From positions 191,212 to 255,211 of the forward strand of contig JBBTSM010000003.1 of the NCBI GenBank assembly GCA_038064675.1: a stretch of DNA of 64,000 bases, given 5' to 3'. The notes under the pieces were generated by a model. That model was not told where the DNA came from. It saw nothing but the letters and a program-made list of their open reading frames with translations, and searched no databases. Shown one piece after another: positions 1,920-53,460 of the stretch (position 1 is the first letter of the stretch; each line of letters opens with the position of its first letter). This DNA is from Patescibacteria group bacterium (GTDB lineage: Bacteria > Patescibacteriota > Patescibacteriia > UBA9934). A program made the translations under genes and the position numbers.

Positions 1920-1944
1920 AGGACTTTGAGAACTTTCTAATTTT

Positions 1945-2048
1945 AGGCTAGTTTCGATGAACGACGAGCAAAGTTTTCGAGATGTACTTCTCGGTACATC
2001 GAGAAAATTTGCGATGGCGTGAGTCGAAAATAGACAAAATTAGGAAGT
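1945..2048 (+). repeat. ~100-bp intergenic repeat element, copy 1 (TTTTAGGCTAGTTTCGATGAAC…GATGTACttctcgGTACATC…GTGAGTCGAAAATAGACAAAAT)
   Basis: Near-identical to copies at 21058-21160 and 30026-30130; contains 7-bp hairpin GATGTAC/GTACATC; lies upstream of minus-strand gene start at 1919. Confidence 0.7.
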
Positions 2049-3428
2049 TCTCTGCTTTGCCCACTGACGAACCACCCATGTCGCGCGTACGTCGTCTTCA
2101 TTGTAGCGCAACACGTCGTTGAGCATCTCGCGATTTCCGGTACGCAACCAGTCCTCGTACCACAATACCGAGTTCAATCCAGACGCGTCGTCGTGCCGCC
2201 AACGAAAGCCGAGGAACTGCGCGATGTCTTTCAATGAATAAAACGACAACGGGAAAATCACCGCCTCGCGCAAACGCTCGAGAACATCCACCGATCGCTC
2301 TGCAAGGTCGTCAACAAATCCTTCTGGCGCGCCGTGACGCTCCGCCATCAGCCGAAATACGTCTTGTTCGTACCATCCATAGTGATACACCGGAATACCC
2401 GGGCGCGACTCCATGAATGCCACGAATGCATCCCACGCCGCCTTTTCCTCGTCCTGCTTTTCTGCAAGGAACGTGTGGAATTCATCGCCTTGGCCGTGCA
2501 CATCGAGCACACCAAAAAGGTAGTGCAAATCACGAAGCGGATCAGCCTCGATATCAACGACGAGTGCGTCGTCAGTTTTTGGGAAGTCGACTTTTCCGAG
2601 GACGACCGGTTTGCCGTCGAGCAGTGCCTTCGCGCCGAGAATGAGGAATTGCAGACGTTCTTGTGTAACACCAGGAACACTGCGAGCAAGGAGATCCGCG
2701 TTCCGCGTTGAGAGCTGTGTAACCGTGGTGATTCCTGCATCGTTCAACGCCGTCACCTCGCTGCGCCAAATGCGGTTCATGCGCGACAAATGATCATTCG
2801 CAATTGTTTCCTTTTTGCATTCATCGAACCACGGGGATTGTTTGCAATCTGATGTGAGGAAATGTGGTTCGCGAATACCTTCGAGAATGCGTTCAATGCC
2901 ATCGAGGGTGAGGCGGAATTTCGTTTGATACTCCTCGAGGACGTAGGCCTCGACGGTTCCATCGGGCCGCATGATGTATCCCTGTTTTGGCTTCATGCCC
3001 TGAATGCCGCGAAGCACCTCGGCGTAAAACGCGCCCTGCACACAGTATTCATCTTTCAAATGACGAGAACGCTTAATGTCGCAGGCAACGTAGTAGTACT
3101 CTCCAAAAGTCGATTTCCCAGAAACGCGTTCGAAAAGATCGGGTTTTGCAACCCAGTGTCCGTGAATAAGCACGCCACCATAAATCGACTGCGCACCCTG
3201 CTTCATGAGCTCAAGCGTTTTCGCGCACGCCTCCTCTTCCGATTCCGCTGAAACTTCAATGGATTTTCGGGTCACCAAAATTGCGCGCTCTTGCTCCTGG
3301 ATCAAGGCGTCGTCTTGCACTCGCGCTCGCATTGCGTCTTCTCGGTGCGGCAATGTTGCGTCGTACCAAATCCACGACGGACACTTGAGATAACGATAAA
3401 AGCTTTGCTTGGTGATGCGTTTGGACAT
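2040..3428 (-). CDS. RecB-like PD-(D/E)xK nuclease with C-terminal RNase H-like (3'-5' exonuclease, DIE motif) domain (COG2251/TM0106-type)
   Basis: 462 aa; N-terminal Cys-containing Cas4/RecB-like region (YRYLKCPSWIWYD…), C-terminal LVVDIEADPL…YHYGWYE exonuclease-like motifs; immediately downstream of an XRE regulator. Confidence 0.55.
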   Translation of the reverse strand: MSKRITKQSFYRYLKCPSWIWYDATLPHREDAMRARVQDDALIQEQERAILVTRKSIEVSAESEEEACAKTLELMKQGAQSIYGGVLIHGHWVAKPDLFERVSGKSTFGEYYYVACDIKRSRHLKDEYCVQGAFYAEVLRGIQGMKPKQGYIMRPDGTVEAYVLEEYQTKFRLTLDGIERILEGIREPHFLTSDCKQSPWFDECKKETIANDHLSRMNRIWRSEVTALNDAGITTVTQLSTRNADLLARSVPGVTQERLQFLILGAKALLDGKPVVLGKVDFPKTDDALVVDIEADPLRDLHYLFGVLDVHGQGDEFHTFLAEKQDEEKAAWDAFVAFMESRPGIPVYHYGWYEQDVFRLMAERHGAPEGFVDDLAERSVDVLERLREAVIFPLSFYSLKDIAQFLGFRWRHDDASGLNSVLWYEDWLRTGNREMLNDVLRYNEDDVRATWVVRQWAKQRTS

Positions 3429-10636: not shown

Positions 10637-10712
10637 TTTAGTCATCCCCGCGTAGGCGGAGATCCATCTTTCAACAACGAACACTCTGGATCCCCGCCTA
10701 CGCGGGGATGAC
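10637..10712. repeat. REP/BIME-like element: two inverted 25-nt palindromic units GTCATCCCCGCGTAGGCGG(A)GATCC … GGATCCCCGCCTACGCGGGGATGAC
   Basis: Each unit is itself a hairpin (ATCCCCGC-CTAC-GCGGGGAT); second copy of the unit at 55017-55045; sits between convergent dinB and PEBP genes (bidirectional terminator-like). Confidence 0.6.
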
Positions 10713-20749: not shown

Positions 20750-20821
20750 ATGAATATAGGCGCTTTTCCCATTTGGCCTCTTTTCAGCTTGTCGCATCGG
20801 AAACTCGCTCAACGTACACAT

Positions 20822-20875
20822 GAAGTACGTCTCGCGAGATTTCCTCGCTCCGCACCGAAAATAGTCTCAAATGTG
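20822..20875 (+). repeat. Partial/divergent copy of the ~100-bp intergenic repeat (…GAAGTACGTCTCG…GCACCGAAAATAGTCTCAAATG)
   Basis: Matches the hairpin and tail modules of copies at 43040-43123 and 1945-2048. Confidence 0.45.
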
Positions 20876-20904
20876 CAAAGTGCGTCCTTTTTACCTCAGC
20901 GTTC

Positions 20905-20940: not shown

Positions 20941-21057
20941 CGATGATGTATTGAACGCCTGTGAGATGTGATGAATAAGTGCCCGTAGAAGACGGCAGAA
21001 TAGTACTAAACTTTGCTAAAATTCGCAAATGAATCCTACAAAAATTCTGATATTTGT

Positions 21058-21160
21058 GGCGAGTTTCGATGAAGAGCGAGAAAATGTCCCGAAAACGTAC
21101 TTCTCGGTACGTTGAGGGAATTTTCGATGGTCTGAGTCGAAAATCGACCAAATAGCAGGA
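21058..21160 (+). repeat. ~100-bp intergenic repeat element, copy 2
   Basis: GCGAGTTTCGATGAAGAGCGAGAAAATGTCCCGAAAACGTACTTCTCGGTACGTTGAGGGAATTTTCGATGGTCTGAGTCGAAAATCGACCAAAT; upstream of rpsB (minus) start region. Confidence 0.65.
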
Positions 21161-21163
21161 TTT

Positions 21164-22174
21164 TTAGCGAATAAACATGGCGTCTCCAAAGGAAAAGAAT
21201 CGGTATCTGTGATCGATAGCTTCTTTATAGGCAGCGAGGATGTGCTCGCGATCGGCGAAGGCGGAAACGAGCATGAGCAAGGTGGATTTTGGAAGGTGGA
21301 AGTTGGTTATAAGGCCATCGACGATCTGAAATTGGAATCCCGGCGTAATAAACATATTCACTTCCCCGCTGTACGCCGCAAGCTCACCAATCGTTGCAAC
21401 AACGCCCTCAAGAACTCGCACCGTCGTTGTTCCCACCGCAATAACCCGACAACCTTCTGACTTCGCCGATCGAATTCTCTGTGCGGTCAATTCATCGATT
21501 TCCACAAACTCGGCATGCATCACATGATCCTCGATGTGATCAGTTTGCACCGGGCGGAACGTGCCGATCCCCACATGAAGCGTCACTTCCTCGATCTGTA
21601 CGCCTTTCGCCCGTGCTCGATCGATGAGTTCGGGGGTGAAGTGGAGTCCTGCGGTTGGTGCGGCGACTGAACCGGTCGATCTTGCATAGACGGTTTGATA
21701 GCGATCGGGATCCGCGAGCTCGGTCGTGACGTATGGTGGCGTTGGTACTGATCCTGCAGATTCACAAAACGCAAACATCTCCCCCGCTGTCATCGATGAT
21801 TTCAGGGTCACGATTCCGTCTGTTGTTTTATTAGAGACGACCCAGCGGGTCGTCTCTACGGTGATCGCAGATCCGATACCTAATTTTCTGCTCCCGCGAA
21901 TCAATACATCGATTTCACCATCGCGAACCTTGAGGACGAAAACTTCGAAGCCGTCGATCTGAAGACGAGCCTTAAAAACCTTTGAAACATTAAAGACGAG
22001 AACGTCGCCGGCATTCAACTCGTCGAGAATTTCAGCAAATCGATCGCGATGACGGATCTCCCCCGAATTCCGGTCGAGCACCAACAGCCTCGATGCATCC
22101 CGTGGCTCAATAGGAACCTGAGCGATCAGCTCCTCCGGCAAATCGTACGAAAAATCAGCAACAGGCGTTGGCAT
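21164..22174 (-). CDS. queA: S-adenosylmethionine:tRNA ribosyltransferase-isomerase
   Basis: MPTPVADFSYDLPEELIAQVPIEPRDASRLLVL…, GTTTVRVLE motifs. Confidence 0.9.
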   Translation of the reverse strand: MPTPVADFSYDLPEELIAQVPIEPRDASRLLVLDRNSGEIRHRDRFAEILDELNAGDVLVFNVSKVFKARLQIDGFEVFVLKVRDGEIDVLIRGSRKLGIGSAITVETTRWVVSNKTTDGIVTLKSSMTAGEMFAFCESAGSVPTPPYVTTELADPDRYQTVYARSTGSVAAPTAGLHFTPELIDRARAKGVQIEEVTLHVGIGTFRPVQTDHIEDHVMHAEFVEIDELTAQRIRSAKSEGCRVIAVGTTTVRVLEGVVATIGELAAYSGEVNMFITPGFQFQIVDGLITNFHLPKSTLLMLVSAFADREHILAAYKEAIDHRYRFFSFGDAMFIR

Positions 22175-23183: not shown

Positions 23184-23358
23184 TTTCCGCACTTATTCGG
23201 CTGTATACAAAGCAGCCTAACAAGAACCTTCCCATTTGGCCGATTTTCGACTCACGCCATCGGAAACTTTCTCACCGTACCGTTAAGTACGCCTCGAAAA
23301 TTTTCCTCGTCGTTCATCGAAACTCGTCACAAATGAAAAGGTTCTTACCAAAACCCTT

Positions 23359-39424: not shown

Positions 39425-40246
39425 ATGCTCATCGCGTTCGTTCCGGTTCTCCACAAAGGCTACATCAACCTTTTTAAAAAATACCCCGACACGCTGGGCA
39501 TTCTTGGCGCTGACGTTATCGCCGACTTCACCGCGCTCACTCGCGACTGCCGCATGGTCGAGCCTGAAGCGATGAAACTCGCGATCGAGAGCCTCAAAAT
39601 CTTTTCGTCTGTTCGTGTACTCTCGAAATCGGATCTCGCAGAAATCGCTCAATCAATGTTGCCGATCGTCATGCCAGATGAAGACGTTTCGCGCGAAATC
39701 GCAAAACAGCATTTCGCCGATCGCACAGTATTCGAATCGATATTTCTCCGATGGGACGGCATGAGAACGTTACGCGAGAATATTGCTGCCCCGGATCGAA
39801 AGATCTCTTCAGATGACTTCGCGAGGTCGATGATCCGTCTGGCAACCGCCGAAGCAACAAAGAGCAGTGACTGGTGGCGACAGGTTGGAACAGCAATCGT
39901 TAAAGACGGCGTTGTTATCGCGCTCAGTCACAACAGGCACCTCCCCACCGATTATCATCTCGACGTCGAAGGCGATCCGCGAACGAATTTCGATGCCGGC
40001 GTTCGAATCGATCTCTCAACCGCGATCCATTCAGAAGCGCTCGCGGTCGCGCAAAGCGCAAAAGCAGGCACACCACTCAATGGCGCCGACGCTTTCGTCA
40101 CTACATTCCCCTGCCCCAACTGCGCACGCTTGCTTGCCGAAGCAGGAATCAAGACCGTGTACTACAACAAAGGATATTCACTGCTTGATGCGGAGGAGAT
40201 TCTGAAGGCGTACGGGATTGAAATCGTGCTCGTCGAAATGAACTGA
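39425..40246 (+). CDS. dCMP (deoxycytidylate) deaminase with ~130-aa N-terminal extension
   Basis: C-terminal CDA fold: HSEALAV (HxE) … TTFPCPNCARLLAEAGIKTVYY (PCxxC); start overlaps stop of upstream gene (TAATATG). Confidence 0.7.
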   Translation: MLIAFVPVLHKGYINLFKKYPDTLGILGADVIADFTALTRDCRMVEPEAMKLAIESLKIFSSVRVLSKSDLAEIAQSMLPIVMPDEDVSREIAKQHFADRTVFESIFLRWDGMRTLRENIAAPDRKISSDDFARSMIRLATAEATKSSDWWRQVGTAIVKDGVVIALSHNRHLPTDYHLDVEGDPRTNFDAGVRIDLSTAIHSEALAVAQSAKAGTPLNGADAFVTTFPCPNCARLLAEAGIKTVYYNKGYSLLDAEEILKAYGIEIVLVEMN

Positions 40247-40247
40247 A

Positions 40248-40274
40248 GGGGTCAGGTCTTGAATCTATGCATTT
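40248..40274. repeat. 27-bp perfect inverted repeat, left arm GGGGTCAGGTCTTGAATCTATGCATTT
   Basis: Exact reverse complement present ~515 bp away (40789-40816); flanks HIT gene. Confidence 0.75.
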
Positions 40275-40316
40275 CTTCTTTTATGAAAAATATGGCTCTT
40301 GCATATTTCAATCCAG

Positions 40317-40760
40317 CTAACCCAAGCGCGTGAATACTCCAATTTTTGGATCATAACTCGGATCATCTGGATCGGATTGCAAAAGCTGACAGTGCAAATG
40401 AGAAACCGTCGACCCGGTAAATCGCATGTCACCAAACCGCATAAACATCGACCCAGCAGACATTTTGAAAATCGCCGTCTGTTCTTTAAGAATTTCTCCG
40501 AGCTCGATCCAAGCTTCTGAAGAAATTTGCGATATATGCTCAATATGCGTTCGGTGAATAAGGAGTTTGTGATGTTTTGTCGGTTTGTAAGGAAACTGAT
40601 TATCCGTGATAATCCAAAACATTCGCTGTTCCATCGGCTTCGTATGAATCCTGTTAAGATGCTGAGGACAAAAAGGGCAAATCTTCTGCTCAGTAATTTC
40701 AGCAATCACTTTATCGTATCCTCCTGGACGAGCATTTTGTTGATTAACGAAGTCATTCAT
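40317..40760 (-). CDS. HIT-superfamily protein, GalT/Ap4A-phosphorylase-like branch (H-x-H-x-Q)
   Basis: CPFCP zinc motif, …FPYKPTKHHKLLIHRTH…, STVSHLHCQLL triad variant. Confidence 0.55.
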   Translation of the reverse strand: MNDFVNQQNARPGGYDKVIAEITEQKICPFCPQHLNRIHTKPMEQRMFWIITDNQFPYKPTKHHKLLIHRTHIEHISQISSEAWIELGEILKEQTAIFKMSAGSMFMRFGDMRFTGSTVSHLHCQLLQSDPDDPSYDPKIGVFTRLG

Positions 40761-40788
40761 ACTTCAAAACGACCTAAAACTTTCTTCA

Positions 40789-40816
40789 AAATGCATAGAT
40801 TCAAGACCTGACCCCA
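40789..40816. repeat. 27-bp perfect inverted repeat, right arm AAATGCATAGATTCAAGACCTGACCCC
   Basis: Reverse complement of 40248-40274. Confidence 0.75.
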
Positions 40817-40821
40817 TCAGT

Positions 40822-42222
40822 TTACACCGGCGTCGGAATAATCATCGCCTCGTGCGGTTCGTAGTCGGCGACCGTGAAATGTTCTGGACGAAAGTCGAGA
40901 AGATCGGTGACGGTGGAGTCCATGTACATCGTTGGGAACGTACGAGGCTCGCGGTCGAGGAGTTGTTTGACGTGTTCAAACTGGCTTTCGTAAATGTGTG
41001 CGTCGGAAATAGTGTACACGAGCTCCTTTGGGGTGTAGCCCGTTGCTTGAGCGATCATCATCGTGAATGCGGCGTATTGGATGATGTTAAAAACGACGCC
41101 AACCGGAACGTCGCCACTGCGTTGGAAGTGATGAACCGAAAGCTGTTTTGTTTCTGGGAACACGAGGATGTGCAAATAGCCGTGGCATGGTGCGACGACG
41201 ACTTTGCGCGGAGAGATTCCTGAATGTTGCAGTGTGTACTGCGGAATCCACGGCGAAATAATGTGCGTGCGCAAATTTGGTCGCTCCTTGATTTGCTTCA
41301 CGACGTGCTCAATTTGATTGAACGGCTCGCCTTCACTTGTTGGAAACGCGGTCCATGCCGGGCCATAGCTTCCTGGACCAAGATCGCCTTCCGGCAAGCC
41401 GAAAATATCACAACGCTCTTTCGTCACCCATTTTTTCCACCACGCACAACCAAACGCCTTCAATTCTTCCTGCGTTCGCGCGCCGTGAAGGAACGCGAAG
41501 TGCTCACCGAGCGCACCAACCATGAAGCGTCCGCCGAGGTCGCGCTCCGTAATCATTGGGAATCCGTTCGCCAAATCGAAATGCATCTGCGCGCCAAGGA
41601 TCATGCGGGATCCTTCGCCTTGAATTGGCTTTACATCAACACCTTCTTCGAGAATTTTCTTGAGCAAATGATGATACTGCCAATCGATAGTACGTTCGAT
41701 AACCGGCTTCATGAACGATCGCTGCACGCGGTAGTGCAGAAGAACACTTCGTGCGTTCAGCTTTCGCGTATCGACGAGTTCGAGATTCACACGAGCAAAT
41801 TTTTCACCAAGTGGAACACCGTTACCGAACAAGAATGGCTCGAGAGTTAAAAAGACTTCATCGACGAGGCCGGCATCCAAAAACTGTCCGTACACCGAAG
41901 CTCCCCCACCAAGCGCTATTGTTTCAATGCCTTCGCCGATCAACCGCTTCACCAAAACCGCCGGAGAATCATTCGTGAATTCAACACCCTCGATCGGAGC
42001 CGCCGCTTCCGGATTCTTCGTTAATACAATCACCCGCCGGTCCTTCAAACCCTTCCCAATCGTGGCAAACGTCGTGCGGCCCATCACGACCACGCCAGCT
42101 TCCTTCGTCTTTTCCACAAAAAACTGCGTATCCTCCGCACTCGTCCAATCCAACGAGGATTGATCCACTTTTTCCGCAATTTTCCCATCCGCGCTCATGG
42201 CGGCAATCAGCCAGATTTTCAT
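40822..42222 (-). CDS. thyA: Bifunctional dihydrofolate reductase-like (RibD_C/DHFR family) – thymidylate synthase fusion
   Basis: N-terminal IAAMSADGKIA… DHFR-like reductase domain; C-terminal ThyA with DLGPGSYGPAW, VVAPCHGY (catalytic Cys), QRSGDVPVGVVFNIIQYA, DAHIY motifs. Confidence 0.85.
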   Translation of the reverse strand: MKIWLIAAMSADGKIAEKVDQSSLDWTSAEDTQFFVEKTKEAGVVVMGRTTFATIGKGLKDRRVIVLTKNPEAAAPIEGVEFTNDSPAVLVKRLIGEGIETIALGGGASVYGQFLDAGLVDEVFLTLEPFLFGNGVPLGEKFARVNLELVDTRKLNARSVLLHYRVQRSFMKPVIERTIDWQYHHLLKKILEEGVDVKPIQGEGSRMILGAQMHFDLANGFPMITERDLGGRFMVGALGEHFAFLHGARTQEELKAFGCAWWKKWVTKERCDIFGLPEGDLGPGSYGPAWTAFPTSEGEPFNQIEHVVKQIKERPNLRTHIISPWIPQYTLQHSGISPRKVVVAPCHGYLHILVFPETKQLSVHHFQRSGDVPVGVVFNIIQYAAFTMMIAQATGYTPKELVYTISDAHIYESQFEHVKQLLDREPRTFPTMYMDSTVTDLLDFRPEHFTVADYEPHEAMIIPTPV

Positions 42223-42382
42223 AGTTGTTCCGATGGTATCAGCCTAGCCCGCGTGGGTCGACGAACCATGTGGATACCCATCGCAATTCCAATAATTCTT
42301 CAAAATATCCAGAAATCGAAAAGGTGGAGCCGCGTTGGCCCCACCCCTCGTAGCGTCACCGTCCCGAACCAGCCCTCCGCAG

Positions 42383-42835
42383 CTACACCTTCGGCGCGTC
42401 GCGGTCCCCGATCGGGAAGTTGAACGTGGACGCGTGAAGCGAACCGTCCGAGAGCGTGACGATCTGGGGAACGATCATGTGGATGTGCGGATGCTGCATG
42501 ATCTGTCCGCTGTAGAGTCGATCACCCTCGCGGATGCAGATCCCGTACCCCTTGAGCCCGAAGCGTTCGATCAGTTCGTCACGCAAGTGCACGAACGCAG
42601 CGAAACCCGCCGCGGTGATCCTCTCCGTGCTGTGGTCAATAGGCGTGAAAAGGATCTGATACAGGGGCTGAATGAACAGCGCGTCCGTACGCGGGCGCTC
42701 ATTGGGGACCGCGATCCACCCTCCGTACGATGCGAGCGCATTGTCGCGCCAGCTCTGCTGACAGAAGCGGCAGCCGTCCCGCCGCACCTGTTCTTCATAG
42801 ACCCGTTCGGGCTTAACAACCTCAGTCATGTACAA
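42383..42835 (-). CDS. HIT-family protein (canonical H-x-H-x-H), GC-rich orphan gene
   Basis: CRFC zinc motif, QHPHIHMIVPQ histidine triad; high GC; terminator GGTGGGGCC…GGCTCCACC + TTTTCGATTTCTGG downstream (minus). Confidence 0.7.
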   Translation of the reverse strand: MYMTEVVKPERVYEEQVRRDGCRFCQQSWRDNALASYGGWIAVPNERPRTDALFIQPLYQILFTPIDHSTERITAAGFAAFVHLRDELIERFGLKGYGICIREGDRLYSGQIMQHPHIHMIVPQIVTLSDGSLHASTFNFPIGDRDAPKV

Positions 42836-43039
42836 CTCCGTGTGCCATGAAACACTACATTGCTACCCAATGTTTGGTCAAAAAGAAACATCACGCGGCC
42901 AAGCATGGCAACCGCGTGATATCTTTTTGCGACGACGTTTTCTCGTCATCACGCTTCGCACTGTACACGGAAAAAATGGAGGGTCAACGAAATTATGTGG
43001 ATAACGAAAAGAATTTATCATTTCGCCCATTTTCGGCTT

Positions 43040-43123
43040 GCTTCCTCAACGTGATCGACGACGTACCGAGAAGTACGTCTTGACGCTCACGTCTTCGTTG
43101 CGCACCGAAACTGGTCTGAAATG
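43040..43123 (+). repeat. divergent copy of the ~100-bp intergenic repeat (…CGTACCGAGAAGTACGTCTTGACGCTCACGTCTTCGTTGCGCACCGAAACTGGTCTGAAATG)
   Basis: Hairpin module inverted relative to copy 1, tail module GCACCGAAA…TCTGAAATG conserved. Confidence 0.5.
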
Positions 43124-43195
43124 AAAAAATTCTTGCTAAGATCGGTGGATAAACACTCGATAATCAATCCGCGATCAAGTACGATCGATGCGCTT

Positions 43196-43621
43196 ATGGA
43201 AATTTCTATCCGTCGACTGAACTCTGATGTTCCCTTTCCAGAATATAAAACTCCTGGCGCATGTGCGTTTGATATTGCGGTTATCGAAGGGAAAATACTC
43301 GCACCAAATGAACGCGCAATTTTTCCAACCGGACTTGTCGTGAAAGTTCCGGAAGGTCATGTTCTTATTCTTGCTTCACGATCGAGCAATGCAAAAAAAG
43401 GCATTACGCTCAGCAATGGCATCGGTATCATCGATGGCGACTATTGTGGACCGAACGATGAACTTCACATCGCGCTCCACAATATCGGAAATGACGCATA
43501 CACCGTCGAAGCTGGCGAACGCATTGCGCAAGGAATGTTCATTCCCATTACTCGCGCACAATTCGTCGAACCGGCTGATTGGTCCGCTATCGATCGCGGT
43601 GGGTTCGGAACAACGGGATAA
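43196..43621 (+). CDS. dut: dUTP pyrophosphatase
   Basis: …LILASRSSNAKKGITLSNGIGIIDGDYCGPNDEL… (RSS…KG and GxIDxDY(R/C)G motifs); start MEISIRRL inside longer track ORF. Confidence 0.85.
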   Translation: MEISIRRLNSDVPFPEYKTPGACAFDIAVIEGKILAPNERAIFPTGLVVKVPEGHVLILASRSSNAKKGITLSNGIGIIDGDYCGPNDELHIALHNIGNDAYTVEAGERIAQGMFIPITRAQFVEPADWSAIDRGGFGTTG

Positions 43622-51312: not shown

Positions 51313-51666
51313 ATGTCTCTCCAAACCATCATCAGCAGCTCACCACTCAGCGACGCAGATAAGAAGGCTCTTCTCAACCGATTGCAGGCAGAGGGCGCAA
51401 CGCCCGACGTCGTTGGATCAATCAAGGAGGCTTTGCAGGAATACATCGACGCAGGGTTCAAGACTCTCGGGGTAGAGGCCGACCCAAACAATCCAAGCGT
51501 CATTAGCGCGCAACAGCATTTCGACGAAGAAGTCGCTTCTGCTGAAGCGGAGTACAACGAAGACGTCGAAAATGCCACCATCGACGCCGCAGTTGCCCAG
51601 GCACAAACAAATAAGGCTATCGAGGCACTAGAAGCAGACACCATCAAAGCAAAGATCGCAGCGTAG
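51313..51666 (+). CDS. hypothetical acidic protein (117 aa)
   Basis: MSLQTIISSSPLSDADKKALLNRLQAEGATPDVVGSIKEALQEYIDAGF…; follows large hypothetical gene. Confidence 0.4.
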   Translation: MSLQTIISSSPLSDADKKALLNRLQAEGATPDVVGSIKEALQEYIDAGFKTLGVEADPNNPSVISAQQHFDEEVASAEAEYNEDVENATIDAAVAQAQTNKAIEALEADTIKAKIAA

Positions 51667-51678
51667 GATACAAAAAAA

Positions 51679-51717
51679 CACACGGCGCCGAATCGGCGCC
51701 GTGTGTTTTTTTATTTC
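51679..51717. terminator. bidirectional rho-independent terminator (CACACGGCGCCGAATCGGCGCCGTGTG + T-run)
   Basis: Perfect GC stem flanked by A- and T-runs between convergent genes. Confidence 0.6.
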
Positions 51718-53460
51718 TTATACTGGCAATTTCCCTGCTTCGACCGCACGATTCACGATCTCGCTCTGCGAAATCACAAGGGCCTCGTCGCTTCCAAACA
51801 CCTTCACCTGAATATCTCCCCCATCGCGCTCCTTTGCGCCGACCACGATAGTCCACGGTACTTTGTTCATCGCGGCATCGCGAATCTTCTTCCCTACCTT
51901 CTCCGGTGCGTCGTCGAGCATGACACGCACACCAGCAGCTTCGAGAATCATCTTCATCGCTTTTGCGGTGTCGATGAATTCATCAGCGACGGTTGCAATA
52001 CGAACCTGCTCTGGCGCAAGCCACATTGGAAAGGCGCCGGCGAAGTGCTCAATCATCACACCAATGAATCGCTCCAACGATCCGAGAATCGCACGGTGAA
52101 TCATCACCGGGCGCTGTTTTATGTTTTCAGAATCCGTGTATTCAAGCTCGAATCGCTCTGGAAGATTAAAGTCGAGCTGAATTGTCGCAAGCTGCCATTC
52201 GCGACCAATCGCGTCCGTCGCAATGAAGTCGATCTTTGGCCCGTAGAATGCCGCCTCACCAACGCCAAAGAAGTATTCCTGGTTCATGTCGGCGAGCAAC
52301 TCCTTCAGCGTTCCTACAGCCTTCTCCCAAACCTCAGCGCCACCAAGATACGCTTCTGGCTTCGCAGGATCATTAACGGACAAACGAGCCTTGAGCGGCA
52401 TCTGAAACGCCTCGTAGAACTTCGTAATGATGTTTGCGATTGCGCGAGCCTCGTCCTTTACCTGATCGAGTCGGCAGAACACGTGAGCATCGTCTTGCGT
52501 GATCGATCGAACACGAGACAGACCCTGAAGCTGACCGGTGTTCTCGTCACGATATACCGTGGTCACTTCACTATAGCGAAGTGGGAGATCGCGATAGCTT
52601 CGACCGCGTGATGCGAAGATCTGCGTGTGGTGCGGGCAGTTCATTGGCTTCAACACGAATGCATCGTCCGTCTTTTTGCTCGACACATGAAAAATGTCGT
52701 CCGCAAACTTATCCCAATGTCCGCTCGTCTTGTACAGATCGCTCTTTGCCATGTGCGGAATGGTCACTTTGGTGTATCCGTACGGCTTCATGAGCGCCCA
52801 GACGAATGCCACGAGCTGCTCACGAAGCACGGTGCCGCGAGGAGTGAACAATGGAAGGCCTGGTCCAACCAGTGGAGAAAACGCAAAGAGATCGAGCTCA
52901 ACACCGAGCTTCCGGTGATCGCGCTTCTTCGCCTCTTCCAACATCGCCAAATGCGCATCACGCTCCGCCTTTGTCGCGAAAGCAATTCCGTAAATACGAG
53001 TGAGCATGTCGTTGTGCTCGTCGCCGCGCCAATACGCGCCAGCAAGCTTCGTGAGTGAGAAACACTGCGGATCGAGCGCAGCGATGCCGTCGGCATGTCC
53101 ACCGCGACAAAGATCGGAGTAGTTTCCTGATGTGTAGAGCGTCAGCGTCTGCCCGTCACCAGCAAACTCGTCGATGAGTTCAACCTTATACTTATTGTCT
53201 GCAAACATTGATCGCGCCTCAACAGCCGTCATCTCCTTACGATCGAATCGACTCCAATCTGGCATCAGCTCACGCATCTTTGCTTCAATCTTTGGAAGAT
53301 CTTCTTCCGAGATTGGTGTAGAGAATGCAAAGTCGTAATAAAAACCGTCATCGATCGCTGGTCCGATGGTACGTTTTGCGTCGGGATAAAGCTCGAGCAC
53401 CGCTGCGGCAAGCAAATGCGCCAACGAATGACGAAGATGCTGCAAATCTTCTGGGTTCAT
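51718..53460 (-). CDS. thrS: Threonyl-tRNA synthetase (lacking N-terminal TGS domain)
   Basis: …LRHSLAHLLAAAV… second additional domain, class II motifs (HRAILGSLERFIGVMIEHFAGAFPMWLAP), anticodon-binding domain. Confidence 0.95.
   Translation of the reverse strand: MNPEDLQHLRHSLAHLLAAAVLELYPDAKRTIGPAIDDGFYYDFAFSTPISEEDLPKIEAKMRELMPDWSRFDRKEMTAVEARSMFADNKYKVELIDEFAGDGQTLTLYTSGNYSDLCRGGHADGIAALDPQCFSLTKLAGAYWRGDEHNDMLTRIYGIAFATKAERDAHLAMLEEAKKRDHRKLGVELDLFAFSPLVGPGLPLFTPRGTVLREQLVAFVWALMKPYGYTKVTIPHMAKSDLYKTSGHWDKFADDIFHVSSKKTDDAFVLKPMNCPHHTQIFASRGRSYRDLPLRYSEVTTVYRDENTGQLQGLSRVRSITQDDAHVFCRLDQVKDEARAIANIITKFYEAFQMPLKARLSVNDPAKPEAYLGGAEVWEKAVGTLKELLADMNQEYFFGVGEAAFYGPKIDFIATDAIGREWQLATIQLDFNLPERFELEYTDSENIKQRPVMIHRAILGSLERFIGVMIEHFAGAFPMWLAPEQVRIATVADEFIDTAKAMKMILEAAGVRVMLDDAPEKVGKKIRDAAMNKVPWTIVVGAKERDGGDIQVKVFGSDEALVISQSEIVNRAVEAGKLPV

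Follow-up and report, generated by a model that had tools for sequence, protein, structure and literature searches.

A 582-bp segment at positions 40241-40822 of a 64,000-nucleotide stretch of DNA (hereafter the window) from the Patescibacteria group bacterium assembly GCA_038064675.1 (contig JBBTSM010000003.1, positions 191,212 to 255,211) is probably a non-autonomous element of the TIRtron type, in which two terminal inverted repeats (TIRs) of ~34 bp and of the GGGGWSAS class enclose a foreign gene for a HIT-superfamily protein that has replaced the resident copy. The assignment of these two repeats, or arms, to a wider repeat family and the foreign character of the enclosed gene are very likely. 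Movement of the whole arm-HIT-arm unit by a transposase may also have occurred, at somewhat less than even odds.

The core of the arms, GGGGTCAGGTCTTGAATCTATGCATTT, is a perfect inverted repeat of 27 nt that occurs exactly twice in the window, at 40248-40274 on the plus strand and at 40789-40815 on the minus strand; in 100 shuffled sequences no match was expected, even with three mismatches permitted. An earlier note on this DNA was right about the reality and perfection of the repeat and placed its right end one base too far, at 40816. Extended outward, the arms reach 34 nt with a single mismatch (97% complementarity), the left arm occupying 40241-40274 on the plus strand and starting with GGGGTCAG, and the right arm occupying 40789-40822 on the minus strand. 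The 514 nt between the arms contain one intact open reading frame (ORF) of 147 aa at 40317-40760 on the minus strand, in agreement with the ~515-bp segment and lone HIT gene of the earlier note, as do the convergent neighbors that it named, a dCMP deaminase gene at 39425-40246 on the plus strand and a DHFR-ThyA fusion gene at 40822-42222 on the minus strand. The outer part of the left arm, AACTGAA, includes the TGA stop codon of the deaminase gene (40244-40246), which would thus be supplied by the end of the element, and that of the right arm, AACTGAT, abuts the TAA stop codon of DHFR-ThyA (40822-40824). The G+C content of the segment is ~0.40-0.44 versus ~0.52 in its flanks. Because six further contigs, derived from independent samples and assemblers, carry both arms in the identical layout, the arrangement is not an assembly artefact.

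Read from the sequence, a 5' untranslated spacer (40761-40788, minus strand) separates the right arm from the HIT start codon, and a 3' untranslated spacer (40275-40316, minus strand) leads from the gene to the left arm. The end of the 5' spacer, AGGTCGTTTTGAAGTATG, resembles the inner part of the arm, AGGTCTTGAATCTATG, and no sigma-70-like promoter was found on the minus strand. The 3' spacer contains an A+T-rich hairpin (40288-40308) followed on the minus strand by a short T run, a combination that may form a weak terminator, although a consensus terminator scan did not flag it. Searches of the region for known RNA families (with Rfam), promoters and terminators found none, and expression of the HIT gene now probably depends on read-through from DHFR-ThyA. 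Insertion of DDE-type miniature inverted-repeat transposable elements (MITEs) is expected to generate a target-site duplication, whereas none is expected of HUH/Y1 transposition. Inspection for such a duplication, as the earlier note had proposed, revealed no direct repeat outside the arms in the window or in the related loci L022 and L027 (described below), a result that fits HUH/Y1 activity, unlike that of a DDE MITE. A blastn search for a plasmid or phage source of the 582-bp element gave no match.

Comparison with close relatives places the foreign DNA between the arms. By their flanking proteins, the window, L017 and L033 form a tight clade. The window and L017 share 97% identity in L1, 97% in ThyA and 93% in cytidylyltransferase, and only 60% in the HIT protein; the ThyA of L033 is slightly more distant (92-93%), and the cytidylyltransferase (93-95%) does not resolve the order of the three genomes. 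The HIT proteins of L017 and L033, both of an "HLHANLV" type, are 84% identical to each other. The window protein shares 60-61% identity with these two copies and 67-71% with the "HLHCQLL" type, which is found in the more distant L007, L010, L016 and L032; in all 500 of 500 bootstrap replicates a CQLL-type sequence came closer to it than either L017 or L033 did. The DNA of both flanks is ~0.8-0.9 identical to that of L017, and identity falls to 0.56-0.71 only in the 100-nt bins from 40200 to 40799, which contain the element. Window-specific substitutions remain near background up to these borders, with 3 in the last 60 nt of ThyA (gene average, 3.2) and a count only slightly raised at the deaminase end (8 of the 48 last aligned sites). 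The alignments thus show foreign DNA that ends at the arms, with flanking genes free of a donor tract, and the 582 bp that the arms bound are therefore a xenologous replacement of the resident HIT allele. The composition of the gene (G+C content, 0.42; G+C content at third codon positions, GC3, 0.41) also differs from that of L1, ThyA, deaminase and cytidylyltransferase (GC3, 0.55-0.61), and the other arm-bounded segments described below are likewise GC-poor (0.36-0.51 versus 0.51-0.53 in the host).

Two other origins of the divergent allele were considered and rejected. No support was obtained for import by homologous recombination through the flanking genes, in which window-specific substitutions are at background up to the end of ThyA and close to it in the deaminase. 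Accelerated, A+T-biased evolution in place would have to account for the 500/500 grouping with the allele of another clade, a result that acceleration cannot generate; such evolution may still contribute to the low G+C content of arm-bounded DNA.

By gene order, the HIT gene itself is a resident of the locus, where its allele was exchanged in place; it was not brought to a new position. In seven of seven armless relatives with readable context (L007, L010, L016, L017, L032, L033 and L009, together with others that encode the same proteins), it lies directly downstream of DHFR-ThyA, converges on the deaminase gene and has the same orientation, within a conserved block in the order dUTPase, DHFR-ThyA, HIT, dCMP deaminase, cytidylyltransferase, L1 and L11. 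This defines the conserved HIT-like gene as a fixed member of a thymidylate-synthesis cluster in this lineage, made up of dUTPase, DHFR-ThyA, HIT and dCMP deaminase. None of the seven relatives has arms at the HIT locus, and in several the HIT gene overlaps ThyA or deaminase, leaving no space for them. In relatives the gene is translationally coupled to ThyA, which makes co-transcription of the two likely. The ThyA-HIT spacer of L017 and L033 contains an unrelated hairpin repeat of ~80 nt, GTCATTGCGAGG...CCTCGCAATGAC, which in the window has been lost with the replaced stretch. Two copies are present in L017 (4906-4991 and 5453-5532), the second of which follows the HIT gene in direct orientation; the spacers around this gene have been colonized repeatedly by small repeats.

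Sequence profiles recognize the enclosed protein weakly. Its Pfam matches to DcpS_C (E = 0.006) and HIT (E = 0.016) are both below cutoff, a profile match to the PDB protein HP_0404 was obtained at 0.0055, and an NCBIfam search found no match. An AlphaFold model built on 19 homologues (pLDDT 72) matched Hint, Fhit and the Ap4A phosphorylase Rv2613c in Foldseek (E ~1e-5, probability 1.00, TM 0.45-0.51). The protein carries an N-terminal CPFCP..H and the motif HLHCQLLQS, in keeping with the His-x-His-x-His/Gln-x-x nucleotide-binding motif of HIT proteins. Residues H121-L-H123 of the HLHCQLL motif are kept in 20 of 20 homologues, the family further conserves a CPFC..H cluster and about 40 invariant positions, and the window gene is intact with every family-invariant residue present. 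The closest of the 23 detectable homologues is 71% identical. The protein thus belongs to the HIT superfamily as a divergent enzyme, and the HxHxQ and CPFC..H motifs make a place in the GalT/Ap4A-phosphorylase branch plausible. A second HIT-like ORF of 150 aa with the motif HPHIHMIVP occurs between DHFR-ThyA and dUTPase (42383-42835, minus strand) and has no Pfam match. The region around it (42300-42870) has a G+C content of ~0.60-0.62 versus 0.52 in its flanks, and the ~570 bp that hold it are missing in the close relatives L017 and L033, which indicates a separate insertion. It was considered as a further arm-bounded cassette and rejected, because it lacks arms.

As the earlier note had suggested, the arm was sought elsewhere, and a family of arms was found at other loci in related Uhrbacteria. 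Two other Candidatus Uhrbacteria metagenome-assembled genomes (MAGs) and four metagenome contigs contain a 22-mer that matches the arm exactly. Nearly all copies form inverted pairs with their GGGG ends outward. The pairs enclose a glyoxalase/VOC gene in L019 (pair length, 424 bp), an AAA_33 P-loop kinase gene in L020 (721 bp), a NUDIX hydrolase gene in L021 and L024 (~510 bp), a 282-aa Y1 transposase gene at L022:5961-6856 (~900 bp), or a non-coding spacer of 100-165 bp (L021:2813-2977 and L026:1455-1560). By sequence, the arms are thereby shown to belong to a repeat family that bounds a transposase, other single genes or nothing. Two types of arm were distinguished, type A being GGGGTCAGGTCTTGAATCTATGCATTT and type B GGGGTCAGGTCTTGCATTGTGCAT. 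Most arms have an outer CTGA[A/T] in common, which often provides the TGA stop codon of the adjacent host gene. Copies are dispersed, with at least three loci in Uhrbacteria bin-0684, and a handful per MAG were seen. The HIT pair and the L024 NUDIX pair occupy the same MAG, as seen from their adjacent GenBank protein accessions. A single arm folds at -2.1 kcal/mol (z about -1), no better than shuffled sequences, and only the L027 copy next to the transposase forms a good terminal hairpin with its outer flank.

At the orthologous NUDIX locus of L021 and L024, all four arms match the 27-mer at 27 of 27 positions, and the flanking DNA of the two loci differs by ~22%; arms that stay identical despite such divergence point to constraint, homogenization or recent renewal. 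The arm-bounded NUDIX gene evolves 1.7-2.5 times faster than its flanks, with an excess of GC-to-AT changes in L021. In the MAG of the window, this gene (L024:8562-9070) is split into pieces of 53 and 119 aa between two arms that both equal the master sequence, and it reads as a frameshift or as decaying cargo. In the compact cassettes (L019, L021, L023 and L024), the inner end of the arm, ...ATGCATTTTA, leads directly into the start codon of the cargo. This junction creates an in-frame upstream ATG (MHFM...), and its reverse complement at the far end gives a TAA stop codon, so that the arms seem to provide a start and stop context for any ORF that they enclose.

The repeat family belongs to a domesticated-type Y1 (HUH) tyrosine transposase of the RAYT/TIRYT type, which is found in tiny Uhrbacteria genomes and presumably recognizes the arms. 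The 282-aa protein of L022 matches Pfam Y1_Tnp (3.6e-12), has a C-terminal HTH_23 domain at residues 245-277, scores 81.7 bits against the NCBIfam REP_Tyr_transpos model ("REP-associated tyrosine transposase"; cutoff, 80) and shows the motifs HYH and ARYIVLNP. The transposase P0024 was found in one genomic context in 18 contigs, and the locus, in the order MreB, glycosyltransferase, TrmB-like, transposase and holB, is orthologous in L022, L023 and L027. The transposase is single-copy, syntenic and vertically inherited. The MAG of the window encodes a homologue, P0027 (locus L027), which is 58% identical to P0024. A tblastn search found no transposase within the 64-kb window. P0027 does lie on the same 284-kb contig as the HIT gene, judging from identical contig statistics and neighboring GenBank protein accessions, and it is flanked by 33-nt arms whose outer GGGGTCAGGTCTTG is in common with the HIT arms. 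The earlier note had proposed to look for a site-specific recombinase elsewhere in the genome; the enzyme associated with the arms is a Y1/HUH transposase encoded on the same contig, and not an invertase.

In the mechanism judged most likely, the arms would be the recognition ends of a resident-type TIRYT/RAYT Y1 transposase. The enzyme would cut and join single-stranded DNA at the arm ends, where the outer CTGA[A/T] would be the cleavage or target tetranucleotide, the role that GTAG has in REPs. Such reactions would move or exchange single arms, or a pair together with its content. The arm-HIT-arm unit would have reached this lineage once it had separated from L017 and would have taken the place of the resident HIT allele, by either of two routes. 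The unit may have inserted first, followed by loss of the redundant resident copy, or its content may have been swapped by recombination through identical arms that were already in place. The second route is conceivable because the 27-34 bp of perfect arm identity are about the minimum for RecA-type recombination.

Among known systems, TIRtrons provide the closest framework. RAYT-like genes flanked by long terminal inverted repeats in place of REPs have been named TIRtrons and their enzymes TIRYTs; many TIRs of TIRYTs contain GGGGWSAS, and some families are dispersed as singles, dimers and groups (Di Nocera, De Gregorio & Rocco, 2013; PMC3733652). Most TIRYTs fall in subclass 2.1 of the Y1 transposases, which have a C-terminal helix-turn-helix (HTH) (Quentin et al., 2018; PMC6006769). 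The arms described here fit this pattern: their start, GGGGTCAG, matches GGGGWSAS exactly at the outer end, they flank a Y1 transposase as TIRs (L022:5961-6856, and L027 around P0027), the transposase is a single-copy Y1/HUH enzyme with an HUH motif, a catalytic Tyr and a C-terminal HTH, and TIR copies are dispersed in the same genome. Membership of the transposase in subclass 2.1 fits by analogy with these TIRYT features. Unlike the TIRtrons described previously, several of the present TIR pairs enclose complete non-transposase genes (HIT, NUDIX, glyoxalase and kinase), one enclosed gene is a xenologous replacement bounded by the arms, and the host is a lineage of the Candidate Phyla Radiation (CPR)/Patescibacteria. 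TIRtron/TIRYT repeats are thus known, if little studied; what is new is a pair that has ordinary genes as its cargo and marks the site where a gene was replaced. The literature searched gave no account of TIR pairs that bear genes.

REPIN-RAYT systems (Nunvar et al., 2010; Bertels and Rainey, 2011; Ton-Hoang et al., 2012) share with the present family a single-copy, vertically inherited Y1 transposase with its own repeats inverted on either side, inverted doublets as the apparent unit, repeats far better conserved than neutral flanks, and a conserved short tag at the outer end. In contrast, REPINs are short non-coding hairpins present in tens to hundreds per genome, whereas the doublets here are 0.4-0.9 kb long, contain ORFs and appear low in copy number. 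Elements of the IS200/IS605 family and their non-autonomous derivatives (PATEs, MITE-like) have in common with the arms a Y1 HUH enzyme, the lack of a target-site duplication and apparent insertion beside a short specific sequence (TTGAT for ISDra2; here CTGA[A/T]). They differ in having no TIRs, asymmetric subterminal hairpins and usually multiple copies, in contrast to the symmetric 27-34-bp TIRs and the single-copy, syntenic transposase here. The likeness to pdif modules (XerC/D) and integron cassettes, in which ordinary single genes are bracketed by short conserved recombination sites, is a functional analogy only. The pdif sites are ~28 bp long and inverted, and the same sites bound different genes, as the arms do, but the arm has neither the 11-6-11 architecture of dif nor the fold of attC, and the linked enzyme is an HUH transposase, not a tyrosine recombinase or integrase. 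Inspection and folding of the arm sequence, in which dif-like, invertase-site and REP-like self-complementary architectures were considered, found none of them. A classical DDE MITE would have its TIRs flanked by a target-site duplication, which is missing here, and would depend on a DDE rather than a Y1/HUH enzyme. The suggestion of the earlier note that the segment is a MITE-like mobile cassette therefore survives in part: the inverted pairs are dispersed, transposase-associated and found with and without cargo, and the segment is foreign, whereas the lack of a target-site duplication, the Y1/HUH enzyme and a HIT gene replaced in place at its ancestral locus do not fit that description.

Several observations weigh against a non-autonomous TIRtron-type element that replaced the resident allele. 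The HIT element was not seen excised, as a circle or at a second location, nor was an empty site observed, and no donor of the HIT allele more than 71% identical was found among the homologues. Low G+C content is also seen in the vertically inherited transposase and alone is no proof of recent transfer. The inner 10-13 nt of the P0027 arms do not match those of the HIT arms, and the change is identical on, and so co-varies between, the two P0027 arms. The window contains only two arm copies, few compared with classical REPINs, and unlike REPs, which are imperfect palindromes of 20-40 nt with a GTAG tag, the arms are not self-complementary and have no GTAG. Furthermore, because the HIT gene occupies its ancestral locus in all seven armless relatives, the element brought no gene to a new place. 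Finally, arms can be gained or lost singly, as the NUDIX locus of L036 and L037 (described below) shows, so that in principle two arms could come to enclose a gene in situ.

On the other side, the findings suggest that arm pairs can carry or swap single ordinary genes, and arms of 27-34 bp in identical form lie beside small housekeeping-type genes in many Uhrbacteria lineages. A more far-reaching extension would cast the domesticated Y1/HUH transposase as the driver of a single-gene cassette system that uses the arms as portable docking sites, in which the content between two arms could be excised, captured or swapped between lineages, through the transposase or through recombination between arms. 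This extension is rather unlikely on present evidence; if true, it would give streamlined CPR genomes a means of in-place gene replacement resembling that of integrons or pdif modules.

Of the alternatives to a TIRtron-type element, the one that survives best invokes two independent insertions of solo arms at CTGA[A/T], on either side of a resident gene and in opposite orientations, so that the pair is not a unit and carries nothing; the HIT allele would have been swapped by ordinary homologous recombination unrelated to the arms. The constant position of HIT in all relatives agrees with this scenario, as does the reported occurrence of TIRs in single, dimeric and grouped form (Di Nocera, De Gregorio & Rocco, 2013; PMC3733652). 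The NUDIX locus points in the same direction. L036 and L037 have a degenerate upstream (5') arm and no downstream arm there, and the downstream (3') arm of L021 and L024 is a clean insertion of ~30 nt immediately after the helicase stop codon (...TGAT|), where L036 reads GGCTGAT|. Such single-arm states imply that arms can be gained or lost singly next to CTGA[A/T]. However, foreign DNA at the HIT locus stops within a few bases of both arms, with no donor tract in ThyA or deaminase, and borders that match the arms would be an unlikely coincidence if the exchange were unrelated to them. Almost all copies, moreover, belong to pairs that face outward and enclose either exactly one ORF or a short spacer, and the ORF of a compact cassette has its start and stop within the inner arm ends, as the transposase gene does. 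Independent solo insertions were judged improbable.

An RNA-level role is far less probable still. In this alternative, a 34-bp duplex in the DHFR-ThyA-HIT transcript would loop out the HIT ORF, with processing by RNase III, insulation or stabilization as the outcome. Both the minimum free energy and the centroid folds predicted for the 606-nt minus-strand RNA pair the arms (-200 kcal/mol, z = -6.9), and ThyA and HIT are likely to be co-transcribed, given their coupling in relatives. Every perfect inverted repeat folds in this way, however, and the fold adds no independent information. Relatives with the same operon lack arms, the same arms bound non-coding spacers and a transposase, and no Rfam family matches. 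The long-range RNA pairing raised by the earlier note is thus physically plausible, is not conserved in relatives and would at best be a by-product.

The weakest alternative is an invertible switch, in which HIT expression would be turned on or off as a site-specific recombinase inverts the 514-bp segment. It has in its favor long perfect inverted repeats around a gene without a recognizable promoter of its own and several assemblies that break at the right arm, but it can be practically dismissed, as all seven assembled sequences with both arms (the window and the six contigs) have one orientation, which is that of every armless relative, the arm lacks the dyad-symmetric architecture of a recombinase site, and the associated enzyme is an HUH transposase. 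The breaks, which first looked suggestive of an inversion polymorphism, affect only the right arm, whereas a mixture of orientations would break both. Three Logan contigs start and three others end inside this arm. In a k-mer check, the arm copies at L022, L024 and L026 proved to contain five 31-mers from the stretch 40787-40821, and because exactly these 31-mers recur at other loci, they fully explain the breaks; the 31-mers of the left arm are shared only with loci from other environments and with none from those samples. The invertible-segment proposal of the earlier note was abandoned on these grounds.

The surrounding cluster and the remainder of the window contain further features. The dUTPase gene (43121-43621) has a GC3 of 0.40 versus 0.56 in L017, and it is only 78% identical to its counterpart in L017, in contrast to 89-97% for the flanking genes; it is possibly another replaced gene in the same cluster. 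DnaA-box-like motifs (TTATCCACA / TATCCACAT) are present at 42262-42275 and 42992-43005, and GC skew around them indicated no origin. The sequence TATCCACATnnTTCGTyGACCC upstream of DHFR-ThyA, which L017 and L033 conserve, possibly serves in the regulation of nucleotide-metabolism genes.

A separate repeat family of ~110 nt with a conserved CGTACCGAGAAGTACG hairpin has five copies in the window, at 1925-2055 (minus strand), 20750-20890 (plus), 21045-21170 (minus), 23215-23345 (plus) and 43010-43130 (plus), and further copies at L024:3480-3605, L024:4810-4930 and L027:5245-5365. This repeat, for which Rfam gave no match, often ends at or near the ATG of a downstream gene (dUTPase, L31), and two of its copies form an inverted pair around ~2 kb with queA and two small membrane ORFs. 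Near-perfect hairpins were also seen at 10641-10712 and 51659-51725 of the window; one of them has 26-nt arms, GTCATCCCCGCGTAGGCGGAGATCCA / TGGATCCCCGCCTACGCGGGGATGAC, and the other has 33-nt arms around a T/A run and a terminator-like appearance.

RAYT and TIRYT transposases, like their repeats, are generally seen as non-coding passengers that are inherited vertically and whose function is uncertain, and the Candidate Phyla Radiation, with its reduced genomes, is known for few classical mobile elements. In the Uhrbacteria studied here, repeat pairs of this kind enclose complete metabolic genes, and in one case they enclose a foreign allele whose borders coincide with the repeats. If the repeats mediate exchange, they would represent a previously undescribed way to swap single genes in place, and a poorly understood class of transposases would acquire a concrete, testable role.

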